Shown here one piece after another: positions 43,651 through 58,881 of a DNA stretch of 64,000 nt. Source of the DNA: Bacteroidales bacterium. GTDB lineage: Bacteria > Bacteroidota > Bacteroidia > Bacteroidales > Tenuifilaceae. Both the position numbers and the translations under genes were made by a program. The notes below the pieces were generated by a model. That model ran no database searches, was not told the origin of the DNA, and saw nothing but the letters and a program-made list of their open reading frames with translations. How positions within the stretch are numbered: position 1 is the stretch's first letter; each line of letters begins with the position of its first letter. The stretch lies in the NCBI GenBank assembly GCA_013141385.1, contig JABFRB010000022.1:92106-156105 (forward strand). Reading direction: 5' to 3'.

Positions 43651-45189
43651 ATGACATTAGTTATCAATGGAGCAAACCTCAAGATTGAGGATGTTGTAAG
43701 AGTTGCTCGTTTCAACGAGAAGGTGGAGTTACACCCCGAGGCAGTTGCGAAAATTAATAAGTGCCGTGCAATGCTCGATAAAAAGATTGCTGCACACGAG
43801 ATTATGTACGGTATTAATACTGGTATTGGTGAATTCTCCGAGATTGTTTTAAATGATGATCAGGTTCAGGATTTTCAAAAATATCTGGTTTATAACCATG
43901 CTGCAGGTATTGGAAATGCAATGCCATTGGATCATGTAAGGGGAGCAATGTTAGGTAGAATCAATGTTCATGCTCATGGGAACTCAGGTTGCCGCATTGA
44001 AATCACCCAAACATTGGTTGAAATGCTTAATAAAGGGGTTACCCCTTATGTTTGCGAAAAGGGTTCAGTGGGTGCTTGTGGCGATTTAGCTCCAATGTCG
44101 CAAATTGCGTTACTTTTAATGGGCGAAGGTCATGCTTTCTATAAAGGGGAAAAATTGGAGGGTAAAGAGGCTATGAAGCGCGCTGGCATAACTGTTCCAG
44201 GGCTTCATGCAAGGGATGGTCTTGCTGCTATTAATGGCTCAAATGTACTTACAGCCATGAGCGCATTGATGGTTTACGATACAAATCGATTACTTAAACA
44301 TGCCGAGATTGCTTGCGCTATGTCGTTAGAGGCATTAAAGGCTAACCTAAAACCCTATCATCCAAAAATTCTTGAGGTAAGAGGATTCCCAGGTGGTATG
44401 CGTAGCGCAGCTGCAATCCGTAAGGTTACAAAGGGTGGCGATTTATCGGAAGGTAAGCTAAAAACCAAGGTACAGGATGCGTATTCAATGCGTTCGACCC
44501 CACAGGTTATTGGTGCTGCTCATGATGCGCTGAAATATGCCCGTGAACAGGTGGAAACCGAATTGAATGGTGTTGGCGATAACCCTATTTTCTTTGCTGA
44601 TGAGAATCTTGCTCTATCAGGAGCAAATTTCCAAGGTTCACCAATCTCATTACCAATGGACTTAGTTGGTGCTGCTGTTACAATGGTTTGCGTTCTATCT
44701 GAGCGTAGGATGAACCGCCTGAATAATCCAGCATTAAGCGTTGGCTTACCTCCATTCCTAACCAAAGATCCTGGAATGTTCTCGGGTTTAATGCTAAGCC
44801 AATATACTGCTGATATGCAGATTGTAGAGCAAAGAATTCTTTGTATGCCAGCTTCAATCCAATCAATCCCTGCCGCTGCGGATCAGGAAGATTTTGTATC
44901 CATGGGTATGAATACTGCGCTTAAGAATTTCCAAATTCTTGATAACGCTTATGGTATTCTTGGTATTGAGTTTATGGCTGCTGCACAGGCACTCGATCTT
45001 CGTGGATTAATTGAAACACCTTACAAATACGGTATCGGAACTCAAAAGGCAAAGGATACTATTCGTAAACATGTGAAATTCCTCGATATAGACCGCCCTC
45101 TATACCCAGATCATAATGCGATGAAAGAGCTTGTAAAAACAGGTGAAATCCTAGAGGAAGTTGAAAAGGAGATTGGAAGTTTGGAATAA
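43651..45189 (+). CDS. Aromatic amino acid ammonia-lyase family (HAL/PAL/TAL-like) with Ala-Cys-Gly at the MIO-forming position
   Basis: 512 aa; GSVGACGDLAPMSQ aligns to the HAL GSVGASGDLAPL MIO loop; additional family motifs NTGIGEFS, YSMRSTPQVIGA, GNFQGSP. Confidence 0.8.
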   Translation: MTLVINGANLKIEDVVRVARFNEKVELHPEAVAKINKCRAMLDKKIAAHEIMYGINTGIGEFSEIVLNDDQVQDFQKYLVYNHAAGIGNAMPLDHVRGAMLGRINVHAHGNSGCRIEITQTLVEMLNKGVTPYVCEKGSVGACGDLAPMSQIALLLMGEGHAFYKGEKLEGKEAMKRAGITVPGLHARDGLAAINGSNVLTAMSALMVYDTNRLLKHAEIACAMSLEALKANLKPYHPKILEVRGFPGGMRSAAAIRKVTKGGDLSEGKLKTKVQDAYSMRSTPQVIGAAHDALKYAREQVETELNGVGDNPIFFADENLALSGANFQGSPISLPMDLVGAAVTMVCVLSERRMNRLNNPALSVGLPPFLTKDPGMFSGLMLSQYTADMQIVEQRILCMPASIQSIPAAADQEDFVSMGMNTALKNFQILDNAYGILGIEFMAAAQALDLRGLIETPYKYGIGTQKAKDTIRKHVKFLDIDRPLYPDHNAMKELVKTGEILEEVEKEIGSLE

Positions 45190-45451: not shown

Positions 45452-45490
45452 AAAAAAACCCCTCTCTAATTAAATCAGAGAGGGGTTTTA
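45452..45490. terminator. Bidirectional rho-independent terminator between convergent genes
   Basis: AAAAAAA-CCCCTCTCT-AATTAAATC-AGAGAGGGG-TTTTA. Confidence 0.55.
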
Positions 45491-45505: not shown

Positions 45506-48310
45506 TTACTCTTTAACTACTTCAATCTCTCCAATTTTTAGCTTCTTAAGAACTGGTACTTGAGTTTTTGCATCACCAGCAATCACATAGTACATCTTAT
45601 CGGGGTTAAGATATTTCTGGGCTAGCGCTTTTAGCTTATCATTTGTCATGCCAGTTATTATCTCCTCCTCCTGCTTTACATAATCCTTTGGTTTATTATA
45701 GGAGCTTATATCCTGTAACATGCCAATTAATGACCATAAGGTTTCAAAGCGAAGGGCATTCGATTTTAGAAGAGCATTCTTTGTAAATTGAAGCTCTTCA
45801 TCGGTAATACCATCACGATATTTAGTCATAATATCTTTAAAAATATCTACAGACTCAGCAGTTGCAGAAGATCTAACGCTTGCGTTTGCAGTAAATGATC
45901 CCGTAAATTCATTCCCATTGAAATAAGTTCTTGCACCATAAGTAAAACCTTTCTCTTCGCGCAATACCATGTTCACTTTTCCGTTGAATGAACCACCCAA
46001 CTTATAGTTCATAACCTGTAAGGGGTAGTAATCTGGGTTTGTTGCTGATAATGAAAGATTACCAATGTTAATTACGGATTGGAATGCACCTGGAATATCA
46101 ACAATATAAATCTTTGATTTTTCAAGTTGTGCGGGATACTGGTATTCAGGGAACTTAACATCTTTAGAAAGCCATTTATTCCCAAGATCAGCCAATGCAT
46201 TCATAACCTGATCCTGTTTAATACTACCAACAATATGGAAATTAGAAATAGAAGGGGTAAAATAGCTATTGTAGTACTCTTTTAAATCGTCTAATGTAAT
46301 ACTGGAAACTGATGATTCAGTTCCAGTTATTGGAATTGAAAGAATATTACCAGATCCATAAATCAACTTATCAAACTCAAATGCTGCAAGGAAATTTGGA
46401 TTCGCTTTATTCCTTTTTATCCTATTTAAAATATTGATTTTTGCTAAATTGAATTCCACAGAATCCCAACGTGGTTCAAGAAGCATTTCTTGAACAATAG
46501 CCAATGTCTTCTCAAAGTTTCTTGAAAGAGTATTAACATTAATGGATATATTAGTATAATCAACACTAACCCAAATGCTAGCTCCAAGCATTTTAATCTC
46601 TTCCTCCAGCTGCTCTGGTGTTTTATTTTTTGTGCCCTGATTAATAACTTTTGTCAATACGTAGGCTAAGCCTGATTTTTCGAGTTTATCGAGATAGTGG
46701 CCTCCATTAACAACGATATTAAATTGTACCAAAGGAAGTTCGTTCTGTTCAATCCCATAAACCTTCATCCCATTTGCAAGTTTACCATCCCAAATAGTTG
46801 GAATATTGAGTTTTGGATCCTCACCAAAAGCGGGACTTACAGAACGATCGAAGCTAGTTTTGGTTTTTTCTATTTTCTCTTCGGTAGTATCAGCAACTTT
46901 TACTTCAGTTGCATTTGTGATATCCTCTTCAACAACGCTGGCTTTTATCGAACCTTCAACGGCTAACTCAGGTTGTCCTTTAGGAACAAAACTTGTTTCA
47001 ACAAAAGGTTTTCCTTTTATATAAGTGTTGTAAACCCTAATTATATCATCCTTTGAAACAGATTTAAGGTTTTTTAAATCGGCTTTATAGAATGAAGGAT
47101 CACTCGTATATTCATTATAAATTGCTAATTTGAATGATTTCTCAAGTACACTCGAAATTTCGTTGTAGAAATCGGTCTCAAGGCTTGCTTTTACCCTTTC
47201 AATATCATTATCCGTAATTCCATCCTTTTCAAACATTTCGAATGATTCAAAAACAGCTTTTTCAACATCTCCTAGCTTGATGTTTGGGAATGCGGTAATT
47301 GCAACCTGAAATTCACCCGCGAGTTCCTGACTAGTGTTATAAGTTGGGGTTGATGAAGCGAACTGTTTTTCCTTAACTATAATCTTATACATTGGTGATT
47401 TTTTTCCCTCAGAGAGAAGCTGTGCAAGGTATTGTAGGGCATAAGAATCCTTATTATACTGAGGAACTGTTGGCCAAACCATTGTTAGCTGAGATGCTTT
47501 AGCAAAATTATCCTCATGGAACAATTTCTTAGTTTCAGCTAACGTTACTGGCATAGGTTTAGGGCTCTCTAAATCATTCCCCTTAGGTATTTCACCAAAA
47601 TACTTATCTATTAATTTTTTGGCCTCTACAACATCAAAATCACCCGCTAATACTATTGTAGCATTATTCGGTATGTAAAATTTATTATGAAATTCTTTAA
47701 CATCCTCAACAGTAGCATTAAATAGATCCTGCATTTCGCCTATCACCTGCCAATTATAGGGATGTCCTTCGGGGTAAAGGGTTTTACCAATCACCCAACC
47801 TGTATGTCCGTATGGTTGATTATCAACCCTCTCTCGCTTTTCGTTTTGAACAACATTTTGCTGATTAACAAATGCCTTTTTGGTAACTGTATTAGTCAAA
47901 TAGCCCATCCGATCGGATTCGAGCCAAAGAATTGTTTCAAGGGCATTTTTGGGTACTACCTCAAAGTAGGTTGTTCCATCATTTCCAGTACCACCGTTCA
48001 ATTCACCACCTGCGTTTTGTATTATTTTGAAAAACTGGTCTTCGGGCACATTTTCCGATTGCTGAAACATCATGTGCTCAAAAAGATGTGCAAATCCGGT
48101 ATGACCCATTTTTTCACGATTCGATCCAACATGGTATTGCACAGCAAATGCTACAATTGGATCCGATTTATCGGTATGAAGGATTACATCAAGACCATTC
48201 GGTAAAGTGTATTTTTCATACTCTATTTTTAGATCCTGTTTTTTATCGTTGGAACAGGACATAACCAGAACAAATACTGCTGGCAGTAATAAGCTAAAAT
48301 ATTTTCTCAC
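45506..48310 (-). CDS. M16-family zinc peptidase (two-unit insulinase/pitrilysin-like), lipoprotein
   Basis: 934 aa; signal/lipobox …VLVMSC; inverted zinc motif HxxEH in GFAHLFEHMMFQ; length fits the tandem M16 active+inactive unit arrangement. Confidence 0.8.
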   Translation of the reverse strand: MRKYFSLLLPAVFVLVMSCSNDKKQDLKIEYEKYTLPNGLDVILHTDKSDPIVAFAVQYHVGSNREKMGHTGFAHLFEHMMFQQSENVPEDQFFKIIQNAGGELNGGTGNDGTTYFEVVPKNALETILWLESDRMGYLTNTVTKKAFVNQQNVVQNEKRERVDNQPYGHTGWVIGKTLYPEGHPYNWQVIGEMQDLFNATVEDVKEFHNKFYIPNNATIVLAGDFDVVEAKKLIDKYFGEIPKGNDLESPKPMPVTLAETKKLFHEDNFAKASQLTMVWPTVPQYNKDSYALQYLAQLLSEGKKSPMYKIIVKEKQFASSTPTYNTSQELAGEFQVAITAFPNIKLGDVEKAVFESFEMFEKDGITDNDIERVKASLETDFYNEISSVLEKSFKLAIYNEYTSDPSFYKADLKNLKSVSKDDIIRVYNTYIKGKPFVETSFVPKGQPELAVEGSIKASVVEEDITNATEVKVADTTEEKIEKTKTSFDRSVSPAFGEDPKLNIPTIWDGKLANGMKVYGIEQNELPLVQFNIVVNGGHYLDKLEKSGLAYVLTKVINQGTKNKTPEQLEEEIKMLGASIWVSVDYTNISINVNTLSRNFEKTLAIVQEMLLEPRWDSVEFNLAKINILNRIKRNKANPNFLAAFEFDKLIYGSGNILSIPITGTESSVSSITLDDLKEYYNSYFTPSISNFHIVGSIKQDQVMNALADLGNKWLSKDVKFPEYQYPAQLEKSKIYIVDIPGAFQSVINIGNLSLSATNPDYYPLQVMNYKLGGSFNGKVNMVLREEKGFTYGARTYFNGNEFTGSFTANASVRSSATAESVDIFKDIMTKYRDGITDEELQFTKNALLKSNALRFETLWSLIGMLQDISSYNKPKDYVKQEEEIITGMTNDKLKALAQKYLNPDKMYYVIAGDAKTQVPVLKKLKIGEIEVVKE

Positions 48311-56205: not shown

Positions 56206-56257
56206 AAATGGTTTATTATATTTTTATAGGGTAAAGTTAGGGATTATTGGTTAGAAA

Positions 56258-56360
56258 TCTTACTCACCCCTGACCCCTCTCTCTGGGCAAGAGAGAGGGG
56301 AACGAAGTAACCAGCAGCATTCCAATTCTCCATTTTTCTCCATTTCTATATTCTATTACT
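56258..56360. repeat. MITE/REP-like repeat copy with CCCCTCTCTCT-GGGCAA-GAGAGAGGGG perfect hairpin
   Basis: TTACTCACCCCTGACCCCTCTCTCTGGGCAAGAGAGAGGGGAACGAAGTAACCAGCAGCATTCC…CATTTCTATATTC; related copies at 56612-56830, 57255-57321 and 58483-58740. Confidence 0.55.
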
Positions 56361-56611
56361 TTTAGAATATTTAATGAATTGTTTCCCAAACTTACTCTCC
56401 CCCAGCCCCATCCGGCTGAAGCAAAACTATCTTCCGGCTCATCATTACCCGAAAATTATGTTTTGTCAACTCAGCTTAGGGTTAGAAAATTCTGTCAACT
56501 TTTTTTAGGACGATACACTCTCTTGATCACCATCTTCCTCCCCCTCTCTATCCTACAAGTAGTAAATAGTAACTAACAAACCTCAAATAAATATATAATG
56601 TTATTTTCGAG

Positions 56612-56830
56612 GATAGAGAGGGGGCCGGGGGGTGAGTCTCTTTTATCCAAACTTACTCTCCCCCAGCCCCTCTCTCTGAGCAAGAGAGAGGGGAGTGAAG
56701 TAACCAGCAGCATTCTAACTCACCATTTTCCTTCATTTCTATATTCGATAGTTTGTAAATGAAAAAAACATTCGCTCAAGAAATGCGTAATCATAACTTC
56801 AAGAATAGAGAGGGGTCGAGGGGTGAGTTT
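56612..56830. repeat. Composite MITE-like repeat copy (inverted terminal segments AGAGAGGGGGYCGGGGGGTGAGT / ACTCACCCC…CCCCTCTCT)
   Basis: Contains both the GAGAGGGGGCCGGGGGGTGAGTC arm (56613-56640) and the forward hairpin arm (56660-56700) plus the shared tail …CAGCAGCATTCTAACTCACCATTTTCCTTCATTTCTATATTCGATAG and a second AATAGAGAGGGGTCGAGGGGTGAGT arm at 56806-56830. Confidence 0.5.
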
Positions 56831-56875
56831 TTTTTATTTATATTTTCATTATCTTGCATTTTAAATGTCTTAATT

Positions 56876-57241
56876 ATGTTTATACCTTCTACCATTGTTC
56901 AAATAGCAAGAGAATTAAGAAGAAATCAAACTCCCGAAGAGGAAATACTATGGCAAGCCTTACGAAATCGTAAGTTGGGTGGTTTTAAATTCCTTCGACA
57001 ACACCCTATAGTTTATGACAAAAATAACCCGCTCCCTGGTTTTATTGTTGCCGATTTCTATTGTGCCGAAAAACAGCTAATCCTTGAACTGGATGGTAAA
57101 ATTCACGATTACCAAAAAGATCATGATCAAAAAAGGGATTTCATAATGGAAACTAAAGGCTATTGGGTAATTCGTATCAAGAATGAGGAGGTGGACAATT
57201 TAGATCAATTATTAGAAAAGATTCGTAATGTGTTAGAATAG
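56876..57241 (+). CDS. DUF559 (Vsr/restriction-endonuclease-like fold) domain protein
   Basis: Start moved to internal Met (MFIPSTIVQIARELRRNQTPEEEILWQ…) because the long-ORF 5' extension runs through a repeat arm; …FIVADFYCAEKQLILELDG…WVIRIKNEEV typical of DUF559. Confidence 0.55.
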   Translation: MFIPSTIVQIARELRRNQTPEEEILWQALRNRKLGGFKFLRQHPIVYDKNNPLPGFIVADFYCAEKQLILELDGKIHDYQKDHDQKRDFIMETKGYWVIRIKNEEVDNLDQLLEKIRNVLE

Positions 57242-57254
57242 TGGTTTTCGGTTA

Positions 57255-57321
57255 ACTTACTCACCCCCAACCTCTCTCTCTGGGCAAGAGAGAGGGGAGT
57301 GAAGTAACCAGCAGCATTCTA
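57255..57321. repeat. MITE/REP-like repeat copy interrupted by the IS630 insertion
   Basis: TTACTCACCCCCAACCTCTCTCTCTGGGCAAGAGAGAGGGGAGTGAAGTAACCAGCAGCATTCTA| ; the tail of the element (ACTCACCATTTTTCTTCATTTCTATATTCGATA) resumes at 58483 after the IS. Confidence 0.6.
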
Positions 57322-58480
57322 ATACCATCTTGAAATATAAAATAGTCCAATATATTTAATGTCGTTTTTTTTTGTATATTTGGACTATAATATAATTCAA
57401 ATATGTCAGCACCCAAAGTCGTTCATATTGGCGAAAGCCTTCAATACCTGAGGGGTCTTTTAAAAAAGACCACCCCCTTTATGGCTCCGCGGGTTAGGAT
57501 GCTTATCGAGATGAAAAAGGCGCAGGATGTGGGTGTGTCTAAGCGGGCACTGGCTGAGCTGGTGGGCGTAAATCACAACAGCATCCAAGCATGGCGGAAT
57601 CTATACCTGTCAGGAGGGGTAGCGCTTCTGATGACTCACAAGAAAACGGGCTATAAGCCGACCAAGATTTCAAAGCAGGAGCATGCAGCCCTTGATCGCA
57701 AGCTCAGAGACCCACAGAGCGGCATTCGGGGGTACACGGAGCTGATGCGCTGGCTTGAGCAGGAGTTTCATCGGAGCGTTAGCTACAATACCCTCTACAA
57801 ATACTGCGTACGCGAGTTCGGCTCATCCGTCAAGGTTGCTCGCAAGAGCCATATCAGAAAGGATGCTGCGGCTGTTGAGGTTTTTAAAAAAACTTCGCTA
57901 AAACCTGCCGCCATGCGATTGCCAGCAAAGGGGGGCGGTTCGAGAGGGTGAACCTTTTCTTCCAGGATGAAAGTCGCTTTGGCCTATTCACCAGGAATGG
58001 TAAGGCGTTGACGGCCAAAGGCGTCAAGCCCATCTGCCCCTTTCATCAGGTTTTTAAGTCCCTCTACCTATACGGCGCATTCTCGCCCGTAAATGGGGAC
58101 TACTTTATGCTGGAGCTACCATCGTGCAACGCCGATCTTTTTCAGGTATTCCTTGATGAGTTCTCACAGCAGGACCCCGATGAACTCAAGCTGATGGTCT
58201 TGGATAATGGCGCCTTTCACAAAGCCATGAAGCTTAAATCCCGGATAACATCATTCCTATTTTCCTCCCTCCATACTCCCCGGAGCTGAATCCAGCCGAA
58301 AAGGTATGGGCTAAGCTTAAGCGTGACTTTACCAACCGGCTGTTCAAAACCCTTGATGAGCTGGATGCTTACCTCTGCAACCTTTCATGCTCGATAACAA
58401 AAAAAGAGGTCATGAGCATAGGAGCGTACAGTTACATTATTTCAAACCCATTTTGGACTATTATATATTTCAATTTGGTA
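57322..58480 (+). mobile_element. IS630/Tc1-mariner-family insertion sequence (~1.16 kb) with ~28-bp TIRs and TA target-site duplication
   Basis: Left end TACCATCTTGAAATATAAAATAGTCCAA vs RC of right end TACCAAATTGAAATATATAATAGTCCAA; TA at 57320-57321 and 58481-58482; internal second copy of the TIR core (TATATTTGGACTA, 57378-57390); GC clearly higher than surroundings. Confidence 0.7.
57403..58470 (+). pseudogene. IS630-family DDE transposase, disrupted by two -1 frameshifts
   Basis: Frame 1 (57403-57951) HTH region; frame shift at or after a G6 run (57930-57935); frame 2 (57948-58289) contains …FFQDESRFGL…; second shift at CTTAAATCCC (~58235) where adding one A restores …KLKIPDNIIPIFLPPYSPELNPAEKVW…. 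Confidence 0.65.
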
Positions 58481-58482
58481 TA

Positions 58483-58740
58483 ACTCACCATTTTTCTTCA
58501 TTTCTATATTCGATATCTTTTAGAATACCTAATGAATTTTACCCAAAACTTAATCTCCTCCAACTCCTGTCTCTGAGCTAGAGTGAGGAGAGTGAAATTA
58601 CCAGAAATCTTACTAGATCACCATCTCCCCCTCTCTATTCGATAGATAGTGAATAAAAAAAACATTCGCATAAGAAAAGCTTAATGTTAATACCTAGAAT
58701 AGAGAGGGGGTCGGGGGGTGAGTCTCTTATATAAAATCTT
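58483..58740. repeat. Remainder of interrupted repeat plus a diverged MITE-like copy
   Basis: ACTCACCATTTTTCTTCATTTCTATATTCGATA…CTCCTCCAACTCCTGTCTCTGAGCTAGAGTGAGGAGAGTG…AATAGAGAGGGGGTCGGGGGGTGAGTCTC. Confidence 0.45.
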
Positions 58741-58881
58741 ATTTCGAGACTTTATGACTTATCATGAGCATTTTTAAGGTTCTGAATAGTTATCATCTTT
58801 CCATTAACATTCCAAAATTTCGCCCATTACTTTTAAACCATTTTCCTTTCTTTGTCTCTTAGATATCAAATAGAAAACCAA

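Follow-up and report, generated by a model that had tools for sequence, protein, structure and literature searches.

The repeat nest at 56262-58723 of the window (the whole 64,000-nucleotide stretch of Bacteroidales DNA that was analysed) is interpreted here, with moderate confidence, as the resident example of a conserved module arranged as (palindromic unit)n - DUF559 gene - (palindromic unit)n, which was later entered by an unrelated IS630 insertion. The repeats belong to one palindrome family, of which nine units or fragments surround an intact DUF559 gene. The basic unit is a compound palindrome of about 50-70 nt with a four-box layout (boxes a, b, B and A: ACTCACCCC..CCCCTCTCT-loop-AGAGAGGGG..GGGGTGAGT), in which AACTCACCCC:GGGGTGAGTT forms the outer helix and CCCCTCTCT:AGAGAGGGG the inner one. 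Both spacers can hold optional extra hairpins, and a double-hairpin version of about 180 nt is also found. An earlier, sequence-only reading had taken a 'MITE' of about 100-200 bp as the basic element; this proves to be the double-hairpin version, represented in the window by U4 and U5, which together form one non-coding unit of about 175 nt (56655-56828) whose two ends carry ACTCTCCCCC..CCCCTCTCT and AGAGAGGGG..GGGGTGAGT, an architecture shared by loci L004 and L005. The features of the nest, preceded by a hairpin with the same inner stem elsewhere in the window, are listed below; (+) is the forward strand, and features without a sign are unstranded.

45459-45485: lone CCCCTCTCT-N9-AGAGAGGGG hairpin with A7 and T4 flanks, between convergent ORFs
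56262-56309: U1, short-loop unit; a-box ACTCACCCC (56262-70), b-box (56274-84), loop GGGCA, B-box (56290-300), decayed A-box AACGAAGT
56310-56393: linker AACCAGCAGCATTC, decayed left arm (long-loop hairpin) and junction TTTTAGAATA..CCCAAACTT
56394-56409: U2, truncated; a-box and start of b-box only (ACTCTCCCCCAGCCCC)
56410-56526: about 117 nt of non-repeat sequence in place of the remaining U2, not in L002 or L004
56527-56637: U3, long-loop unit; TCACC, b-box (56540-49), loop of about 65 nt, B-box (56615-24), A-box GGGGGGTGAGT (56627-37)
56655-56701: U4, short-loop unit; ACTCTCCCCC AG CCCCTCTCTCT GAGCA AGAGAGAGGGG AGTGAAGT
56718-56828: U5, long-loop unit with decayed left arm; B-box (56807-15), A-box (56820-28), then T8
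56829-56875 (+): AT-rich leader from the last upstream unit to the DUF559 start, kept in L002-L004
56876-57241 (+): intact gene for a DUF559 (Vsr-like PD-(D/E)xK) nuclease of 121 aa (PF04480, 4.5e-31)
57259-57305: U6, short-loop unit, beginning 17 nt past the DUF559 stop codon
57306-57321: linker AACCAGCAGCATTCTA, ending with the TA target (57320-57321; empty site in L002/L003)
58483-58550: continuation of the split unit; decayed left arm ACTCACCATTTTTCTTCATTTCTATATTCGATA, then junction TTTTAGAATACC..CCCAAAACTT
58551-58597: U8, decayed short-loop unit, 83% identical to U4
58618-58723: U9, long-loop unit; b-box (58627-36), B-box (58701-10), A-box (58713-23), arms 14/14 complementary

Counts bear out the sequence-only description of a nest, in which the repeat copies carry hairpins and inverted ends. 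The hairpin CCCCTCTCTCTGRGCAAGAGAGAGGGG lies at 56274, 56667 and 57271, with a degenerate copy near 58564, and is absent from shuffled sequence; the AGAGAGGGG box occurs 12 times against 0.2 expected, and the GGGGTGAGT box five times against 0.16. The arms of U3 are 15/15 complementary. The junction of 56310-56393 comes back at 58483-58550, in a direct-repeat family 81% identical to 58482-58567, and the segment 58483-58550 itself has direct-repeat matches at 97% and 81% and is joined directly to 57321 in L002/L003. Neither target-site duplications nor flanking direct repeats were found at U1-U9 or at the solitary units inspected, and the ends of the units are unrelated to those of the IS630 element. 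Rfam holds no match to the unit, and no description of the unit or of its arrangement with DUF559 was found in Rfam or in the literature searched.

Across the family, spacer hairpins keep their pairing and not their sequence (35 of 39 fold, median z -4.3) and compensatory change is seen in the inner helix (CT:AG 75, CC:GG 19, non-pairs 6), two patterns which indicate that the fold of the unit is under selection. The outer and inner helices switch in a correlated manner. Unit variants are genome-specific, and in L038, L064 and L066 the same variant is present both next to the gene and as solitary copies more than 1.5 kb away.

The gene enclosed by the units is predicted to be functional from its invariant residues, its Vsr-like modelled fold and its codon differences. 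All 23 family-invariant residues are kept in the family alignment, D60, E71, D73 and H77 being invariant, and PDB entry 3HRL matches the protein both by sequence (2.7e-19) and by fold (2.9e-6). The AF2 model (pLDDT 86) is matched by Foldseek to 3HRL and to I-Bth0305I (3R3P), and the PADLOC 'HEase' model is also related to the protein. Compared with L004, the gene carries 27 synonymous and 3 nonsynonymous codon differences, a ratio pointing to purifying selection. The sequence-only reading correctly placed this ORF between repeat copies and recognized the 5' extension of its long form (NREGSRGE) as a repeat arm in translation. Its neighbours encode a 105-aa membrane protein, a TPMT-like small-molecule methyltransferase and a Cu-oxidase_4 (PgeF-type) protein; a cytosine-5 DNA methyltransferase, the classical Vsr linkage, is not among them. 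The DUF559 family is very large and consists of small proteins annotated as 'endonuclease domain-containing', for which hardly any function has been assigned. Vsr-like PD-(D/E)xK enzymes are DNA nucleases, and we know of no route by which a PD-(D/E)xK nuclease alone could achieve strand transfer.

The association between units and DUF559 was observed directly, from the side of the gene as well as from the side of the palindrome. The 80 closest DUF559 loci of different species, 1.12 Mb in total, contain 122 strict palindromes, 101 of them at most 250 nt from the gene; just 4 are at distances above 1 kb. Where flanks were adequate (70 loci, all from different species), a strict hairpin lies within 400 nt of the gene in 62 and on both sides in 39, compared with 0.5% of 1745 control windows. 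DUF559 homologs elsewhere do have the same flanking repeats, a point the sequence-only reading had raised, and the gene is not the incidental cargo that it might have been: one gene is systematically linked to the repeat family in dozens of species. Units flank most related DUF559 loci in Bacteroidota, Balneolaceae, Ignavibacteria and relatives, and their sequence is kept across 32% to 67% GC. The stop codon of the gene often overlaps an a-box (e.g. TAACTCACCCC), and in 17 loci the gene lies within a single giant unit (abB|gene|bBA). By analogy, the giant-unit loci resemble an autonomous element of which the solitary unit would be the gene-less form.

When metagenome loci were picked by the palindrome alone, 12 of 120 had a DUF559 gene within 500 nt (115 kb searched), compared with one DUF559 gene in 328 kb of distant control sequence, an enrichment of more than 30-fold; no other gene family and no transposase recurs beside the units of these loci. 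About 90% of the copies sampled in this way are solitary or in gene-less arrays (e.g. L157, L153), in unrelated intergenic regions far from DUF559, and solitary units occur in more than 100 metagenome contigs. Unit density is very roughly one per 60-90 kb, as estimated from sampled loci of at most 20 kb in which 16 matches lie more than 1.5 kb from the gene and about 10 are convincing as units. A search of 185,579 species genomes found no exact copy of the window hairpin, and the 71 kb available for this organism hold no solitary full unit outside the nest, only the nest and the 45.4 kb hairpin.

The units also leave traces in assembly and annotation: they break assemblies, many DUF559 loci being on contigs of about 1 kb, and they create false read-through C-termini and spurious ORFs.

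Comparison of loci reveals turnover of units together with long inheritance of the gene. The number of units at the orthologous locus varies between strains (window, L002, L003, L004), and at other orthologous intergenic sites units are found with or without the gene depending on lineage (L031 vs L108, L197 vs L149, both distant pairs). In the species pair L058/L065 the gene is inverted between flanking inverted hairpins. DUF559 has been scored as a 'programmed inversion' target (PMC9881135), a score for which the units probably account. Sunxiuqinia dokdonensis carries two modules that are 90% identical over unit-gene-unit (about 560 nt), with unrelated upstream flanks. Nevertheless, movement of the module is rare, since the gene shows long-range synteny (L002-L005, and pairs such as L007/L020 and L011/L012) and most DUF559 paralogs are only about 55% identical. 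Solitary units, too, persist at orthologous sites in distant relatives.

The right-hand part of the nest is interrupted by the IS630-family element, whose features are as follows.

57322-58480 (+): IS630-family insertion sequence, 1159 bp, 47% GC, with inverted ends at 57322-57353 and 58450-58481
57403-57951 (+): orfA (HTH domains), frame 0
57886-57892 (+): A7 run with a -1 frame switch (EVFKK|NFAKT), located by homology to full-length transposases
57891-58238 (+): first part of orfB (DDE_3), -1 frame
58236-58238 (+): A4->A3 lesion, CTTAAA(A)TCCCGG, which breaks the DDE domain; intact homologs read HKAKRLIIPKNI uninterrupted
58238-58483 (+): C-terminal transposase segment in the third frame; its stop TAA (58481-58483) would be made by the duplicated target
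58481-58482: probable second copy of the TA target, from the empty-site comparison

The inverted arms are 32 nt long with 88% complementarity, and the frame-repaired transposase scores 193.8 bits with the NCBIfam model transpos_IS630 (cut-off 100) and has the Pfam domains HTH_32/33 and DDE_3. As the sequence-only reading had stated, the element is richer in GC than its host (47% vs 36% for the window) and has split one repeat copy precisely, the related strains L002/L003 having the uninterrupted site. The boundaries are real, since the window without 57322-58482 aligns gap-free to the orthologous sites of these two other metagenomes (L003 113/120, L002 111/120); the empty site ...CATTCTAACTCACC... 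is equally compatible with duplication of TA, TAA or A. That reading also gave the transposase two 1-nt deletions, of which the second, A4->A3, is a real 1-nt loss. The first is most likely not a deletion and does not lie at the G6 tract (57930-57935), frame homology switching at the A7 run. The TTTTAAAAAAACTTC site is found in the same frame in three diverged relatives (L211, L209/L210), and this conservation makes it probably a recoding site, with programmed frameshifting or transcriptional slippage as the probable cause of the frame switch. Frameshifting is known in the IS630 family (Roseiflexus IS630, PMC5009743). The transposase most likely carries one lesion, not two, and the copy is probably dead.

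At about even confidence and by analogy, we favour a system of the REP/RAYT type in which the cognate gene encodes a PD-(D/E)xK nuclease. The DUF559 protein would be the cognate enzyme of the palindromic repeats, as RAYT is for REP/REPIN; it would recognise the folded or dyad-symmetric unit and nick or cut there, after which host repair and recombination would duplicate, delete, convert and invert units and the whole module and occasionally relocate them. Purifying selection would preserve the gene, and its inheritance would be mainly vertical. The IS630 copy would have entered TA in the linker of one unit, used its A7 recoding site and been disabled by a single 1-nt deletion. The association with the gene is an observation, from which we infer this enzymology, and the model leaves the correlated switch of outer and inner helices unexplained. 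A Vsr-like (DUF559) nuclease of 120 aa may be the dedicated enzyme of phylum-wide folded palindromic repeats, either as the smallest autonomous element or as a domesticated partner, a claim that we put forward tentatively.

The same association would also be expected if the gene were a parasite of pre-existing repeats. DUF559 would then be a free-standing selfish gene of homing type, cutting gene-less unit clusters so that repair copies the gene in with the units as homology arms, while something other than DUF559 makes and spreads the units. The kinship of the protein in fold and sequence to the homing endonuclease I-Bth0305I (3R3P) and the PADLOC 'HEase' model agrees with this, as do the constant position of the gene between hairpins (of two units or of one double unit), the distant pairs of orthologous sites with and without the gene, the two 90%-identical modules with units as boundaries in one genome, and the absence of the gene near about 90% of units. 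We nevertheless consider homing unlikely, because a gene under strong purifying selection that has long been passed on vertically at one locus is atypical of cycles of gain, decay and loss, solitary units have no excess of pseudogene remnants beside them, most paralogs are only about 55% identical, and no alternative unit-spreading enzyme was found beside the units. It is improbable that the units serve the host as DNA or RNA structures, whether by terminating transcription, insulating, stabilising mRNA or binding nucleoid or topology proteins, with DUF559 as a gene that they habitually bracket or regulate. Stable GC-rich hairpins in intergenic DNA, the T8 after U5 just upstream of DUF559, and the retention of orthologous solitary units in distant relatives would suit such a role. 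So would the 45.4 kb hairpin, which the sequence-only reading had called a terminator with a similar stem: it exists, with A7/T4 flanks between convergent genes, but has in common with the units only the inner (b:B) stem, lacks the a/A boxes, and may be a minimal relative of the unit or a plain terminator. The suggestion that the repeats themselves act as terminators or insulators fares poorly: solitary units are not under-represented in divergent intergenic regions (24 tandem, 8 convergent and 8 divergent in a crude ORF-based test), most nest hairpins have no T tract, and a terminator scan called no nest hairpin, only U5 and the 45.4 kb hairpin approaching terminator form. A terminator, moreover, requires neither conserved outer boxes nor spacer hairpins nor sequence constancy over 32%-67% GC, and host function leaves the >30-fold link to a single gene family unexplained.

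Very improbable, in our judgement, is that the units encode small structured RNAs acting with the nuclease, as in a type III toxin-antitoxin-like pair or as guide or decoy RNAs. The conserved multi-stem fold with its compensatory changes and variable-sequence hairpins, and the tandem arrays immediately upstream of a small nuclease gene, are reminiscent of this (cf. ToxIN), but a ToxIN-like system has tandem repeats upstream only, which is not what is seen: units flank the gene on either side, and most are solitary and far from it. They are near-perfect palindromes without a sense-strand G-U signal (30 G-T vs 51 A-C mismatches) and without an Rfam match, and enzymes of the Vsr-like PD-(D/E)xK type act on DNA. 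Least credible of all are two versions in which DUF559 is a chance neighbour: that the units form an ordinary MITE family mobilised by a DDE transposase acting in trans, or that they arose by a purely local segmental duplication. Double units of about 180 nt with inverted ends and no coding capacity, their restriction to the nest within the 71 kb of this organism, and a species genome collection without the exact hairpin would all be expected of it; both versions are already contradicted by the units flanking DUF559 across dozens of species (62 of 70 loci) and by the solitary metagenome copies. Target duplications are absent, the IS630 element has ends unrelated to those of the units, transposases do not recur next to units, and the sole gene-bearing form, the candidate MITE parent, encodes DUF559 and not a transposase.

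The tight, conserved link to a specific folded palindrome provides a concrete candidate substrate for DUF559. To our knowledge, REP-RAYT stands alone among well-described bacterial repeat families in being tied to a single-copy cognate gene. If the dedicated-enzyme reading is true, the present system would be a second, mechanistically independent counterpart of REPIN-RAYT, and the large orphan family DUF559 would gain a function. Another such case, built on an unrelated catalytic fold, would mean that the arrangement evolved more than once, and would raise the question of how a nuclease without a known rejoining route propagates or maintains repeats. As an autonomous element it would consist of two palindromic ends and a PD-(D/E)xK nuclease in about 0.5 kb; as a domesticated partner, the nuclease would maintain its own repeats.

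Among known systems, the IS630 copy resembles recoded members of its family in its HTH and DDE_3 transposase, inverted ends, probable TA target, length of about 1.16 kb and frames joined at an A run, and differs in that its best protein relatives are only about 54-64% identical and that it bears an extra 1-nt deletion. The unit-DUF559 module recalls autonomous insertion sequences with their MITEs (IS630/Tc1-type, IS200/IS605-derived) in having, at class I loci, the gene in a giant unit whose ends equal those of the gene-less unit, units nested within units, and a strain-variable copy number; in contrast to these it has no recognisable transposase and no target-site duplication, and the evidence of its movement is one intragenomic pair. 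With I-Bth0305I and other Vsr-like homing endonucleases, E. coli Vsr and Caulobacter VsrA, itself a DUF559 protein (PMC12907096), the gene product shares a small size, DNA endonuclease character and the catalytic fold (3HRL, 3R3P; predicted here), whereas the gene lies outside any intron or intein, without an adjacent cytosine-5 DNA methyltransferase, and is flanked by conserved palindromes not reported for those enzymes. Compared with REP/BIME-RAYT, the nuclease is a Vsr-like PD-(D/E)xK enzyme (DUF559) and not an HUH/Y1 (IS200-like) transposase, several diverged copies of its gene are possible per genome, and the palindrome is a compound of two helices, often a 3- or 4-way junction, with the ends AACTCACCCC and GGGGTGAGTT in place of the GTAG (or CGTC) tag found at the foot of the REP palindrome (PMC3733652). 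Its density is low (very roughly one per 60-90 kb in sampled loci), and its core sequence is kept over phylum-level distances, whereas REPs vary between species. In common with REP/BIME-RAYT it has short intergenic imperfect palindromes, single and in arrays, with genome-specific variants; one small gene characteristically flanked by the repeats (62 of 70 loci, 39 on both sides); and vertical inheritance of that gene under purifying selection together with long-lived solitary copies.

The repeat nest at 56262-58723 is one copy of a conserved module, in which palindromic units flank a DUF559 gene, that has been expanded and was later struck by an IS630 element; the same units are also found dispersed, without the gene. 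The 27-nt hairpin CCCCTCTCTCTGRGCAAGAGAGAGGGG is present three times (56274, 56667, 57271), plus a decayed version near 58564, and is absent from shuffled sequence, while AGAGAGGGG is found 12 times (0.2 expected) and GGGGTGAGT five times (0.16 expected). The repeats noticed in the sequence-only reading are thus genuine, their counts being far above chance. All copies share a four-box unit, in two forms:

Four-box unit, common to all copies: a = ACTCACCCC, b = CCCCTCTCT, loop, B = AGAGAGGGG, A = GGGGTGAGT
Short-loop units: U1, U4, U6 and the decayed U8; loop GRGCA, decayed A-box AGTGAAGT
Long-loop units: U3, U5 and U9; loop of about 60 nt

A double-hairpin element of about 175 nt consists of one short and one long unit, and also lies downstream of DUF559 at the same locus in L005, where the DUF559 is 73% identical to that of the window. 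The number and arrangement of units vary between the window, L002/L003 and L004, which carry the orthologous locus. In the window, about 117 nt of unique sequence (56410-56526) takes the place of the inner part of the truncated unit U2; this sequence is missing from L002 and L004.

The association was evident from the gene side in the 80 closest DUF559 loci, taken from different species (48-62% identity, 1.12 Mb in total) of Bacteroidota, Balneolaceae, Ignavibacteriales, Ca. Kryptonia and Cloacimonadota. Of the 122 strict palindromes in these loci, 52 stand upstream and 49 downstream of the gene at a distance of at most 250 nt, and only four are more than 1 kb from DUF559. A stricter detector found a hairpin within 400 nt in 62 of 70 loci, on both sides in 39, compared to 0.5% of control windows (n = 1745). 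The recurrent layout is (abBA)n - gene - (abBA)n, and the a-box is often overlapped by the DUF559 stop codon. In the two dominant architectures the gene stands between complete units (abBA-gene-abBA), at 21 loci with the window among them, or inside a single giant unit (abB-gene-bBA), at 17.

Starting from the repeats, a search of metagenomes for b-loop-B-A returned at least 120 contigs (32-67% GC). Among the matches listed, DUF559 was found within 500 nt of the unit in 12 of 120, against one in 328 kb of distant control sequence, and the palindromes of the remaining contigs adjoin unrelated genes. Gene-less, intergenic, BIME-like arrays of five units occur at L157:1163-1510 and L153:298-565. 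Since few units lie near DUF559, their neighbours are unrelated and arrays exist without the gene, the family is dispersed, mostly solitary and intergenic, with DUF559 as the single gene linked to it. The exact 24-nt hairpin gave no match in 185,579 species genomes, a collection that does not hold this organism, and this is therefore not evidence against dispersal; a repeat-derived peptide yielded no candidates in the protein collection. Solitary units do not appear to be relics of deleted DUF559 genes, as weak fragments of DUF559 show no enrichment next to them and an apparent 'ENEEI' remnant in L108 was not significant. The terminator or insulator function proposed earlier found no support, because the genes on either side of the units appear to be oriented at random (24 tandem, 8 convergent, 8 divergent). 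A lone CCCCTCTCT/AGAGAGGGG hairpin at 45459-45485, between the convergent ORFs 43651-45189 (+) and 45506-48310 (-), has the inner stem of the unit without the outer boxes, and may be a minimal member of the family or a terminator that has no relation to it.

The ORF between the repeat copies (56876-57241) is indeed a DUF559 gene (Pfam, 4.5e-31). Matches to 3HRL (2.7e-19) and I-Bth0305I (7.5e-7), together with an AlphaFold2 model (mean pLDDT 86) whose top Foldseek match is 3HRL, identify the predicted protein as a Vsr-like PD-(D/E)xK nuclease. No DNA cytosine methyltransferase was found among the genes neighbouring it in the window. The gene is conserved, the codon differences between the window and L004 being 27 synonymous and 3 nonsynonymous. 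The odd C-terminal tails that are common among database homologs (such as NSPPFPLSTL and LTHPPAPSLRSREG) are translated units; such false extensions (NSPP.., LTHPPAPSL..REG) were seen in P0007, P0010, P0012, P0019, P0043, P0057, P0075, P0105 and others, several of which are called 'leucyl-tRNA synthetase' by one source. Many of these proteins are on contigs of about 1 kb, an indication that assemblies break at the repeats. Carriage by phages was rejected, as the module is rare in viral contigs, which gave just three weak DUF559 matches.

Modules and units show signs of turnover. In L058:8660-9235 and L065:9834-10420, from two species, the flanks are syntenic (76-83% identical) and the DUF559 segment lies in opposite orientations; the breakpoints of the inversion fall within a pair of inverted b:B hairpins with mutually reverse-complementary loops (GCTTCGC, GCGAAGC). 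'DUF559 domain-containing protein' is enriched among predicted targets of programmed inversion (odds ratio 14; PMC9881135), and hairpin-bounded inversion of DUF559 is probably the explanation. Sunxiuqinia dokdonensis has two unit-gene-unit modules, 90% identical, with unrelated upstream flanks. L031:9880-10430, with the gene, and L108:1040-1300, gene-less (a-bB-100 nt-bB-A), occupy an orthologous spacer bounded by an HTH regulator and a dinB-like gene, and in a second orthologous pair (L197:1-190 and L149:4296-4357) both members have units and one has DUF559.

The element at 57322-58480 belongs to the IS630 family, as had been read from the sequence: its ORFs match HTH_32/HTH_33 and DDE_3 in Pfam, and the transposase, once its frame is repaired, reaches 193.8 bits against NCBIfam IS630 (cut-off 100). 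Its nearest relatives are only 54-64% identical. Its ends are 32 nt long and 88% complementary, and at 47% GC it is richer than the window (36%), again as described. An IS-free version of the locus exists in related strains from other metagenomes, L002 (GCA_017973795.1), L003 (groundwater) and L004. The window without 57322-58482 aligns gap-free with L003 (113/120) and L002 (111/120), which confirms the boundaries and the precise splitting of one repeat copy. The net gain was 1161 bp; duplication of TA (IS 57322-58480), TAA or A fits equally.

Inactivation of the transposase by two 1-nt deletions, the first at or after a G6 tract, had been proposed, and only the second deletion stands. Comparison with homologs rejects the G6 tract and places the first frame change at an A7 run (57886-57892). 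Full-length homologs read ..KKNFGK.. uninterrupted across this point, while the orfA-type relatives P0152 and P0140 have exactly the ..FKKTSL.. continuation of the window, and TTTTAAAAAAACTTC is kept at identical position and frame in their source DNA (L211, L209/L210). As frameshifting and transcriptional realignment are documented for IS630 (PMC5009743), the conserved A7 run is probably a recoding site rather than damage, judging from these alignments. The second change, CTTAAA(A)TCCCGG minus one A (58236-58238) within the DDE domain, is a real lesion, for which L001, 100% identical to the window (same strain, the sole match of the OPT protein, while two further window proteins gave none), offers no independent check. 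At 57937-57954, 45 nt downstream of the A7 site, there is a hairpin, GGTTCGAGAGGGTGAACC, that is followed by TTTTCTT and overlaps the stop codon of orfA. At the left end, a 21-nt inverted repeat (57330-57350 / 57380-57400, 86% complementary, 29 nt apart) directly precedes the transposase ATG (57403) and may serve as an additional binding site or form a structure that limits read-through expression. The final transposase frame extends across the right end to a TAA stop (58481-58483) made of the duplicated target TA and a flanking A.

The units themselves appear to be maintained as folds. Compensatory change is evident in the inner helix (CT:AG 75, CC:GG 19, non-pairs 6). Outer and inner helix types switch jointly (41 + 11 concordant loci, 1-2 discordant). 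Around DUF559 in L006-L085, type 1 combines CTCT and GAGT, and type 2 combines CCCT and GGGT. In L038, L064 and L066, gene-flanking units and units more than 1.5 kb away have a genome-specific variant in common. In many lineages one or both of the spacers (a-b, B-A) hold inserts of about 20 nt; their sequences differ and 35 of 39 form hairpins (median z -4.3), so that the unit becomes a 3- or 4-way junction. No fixed polarity of the unit relative to the gene emerged, as the extra hairpin occupies either spacer depending on lineage. The a-box is the mirror image of the b-box, and type 2 has a purine arm, AGGGAGGGG-N-GGGGTGGGT, that matches a textbook G-quadruplex motif; a hairpin model leaves the joint switch, the mirror-image boxes and this arm unexplained.

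We give about an even chance to a REP/RAYT-like relationship, in which the unit, folded or dyad-symmetric, would be the target of the DUF559 nuclease and the observed turnover would arise from host repair. The main rival, in which the repeats came first and DUF559 exploits them as a homing-type parasite, we consider unlikely. A function of the units at the RNA level is less likely still: mismatches (30 G-T vs. 51 A-C) carry no strand signal, and Rfam, at gathering and permissive thresholds, gave chance microRNA-like matches only in the window and six related loci. The same applies to a host function of the units and to plain MITEs; the inverted-end appearance behind the earlier MITE label holds, but the basic element is the four-box unit and the form of about 175 nt a composite.

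The palindrome family has no Rfam entry, and our literature search, in a library that is incomplete so that a description may exist elsewhere, found no link between DUF559 and palindromic repeats. The one functional study of a DUF559 protein found there, on Caulobacter VsrA, does not mention repeats (PMC12907096). The known REP superfamilies, with GTAG or CGTC tags, are associated with RAYT or with no gene (PMC3733652), whereas the gene of the palindromic units is DUF559.
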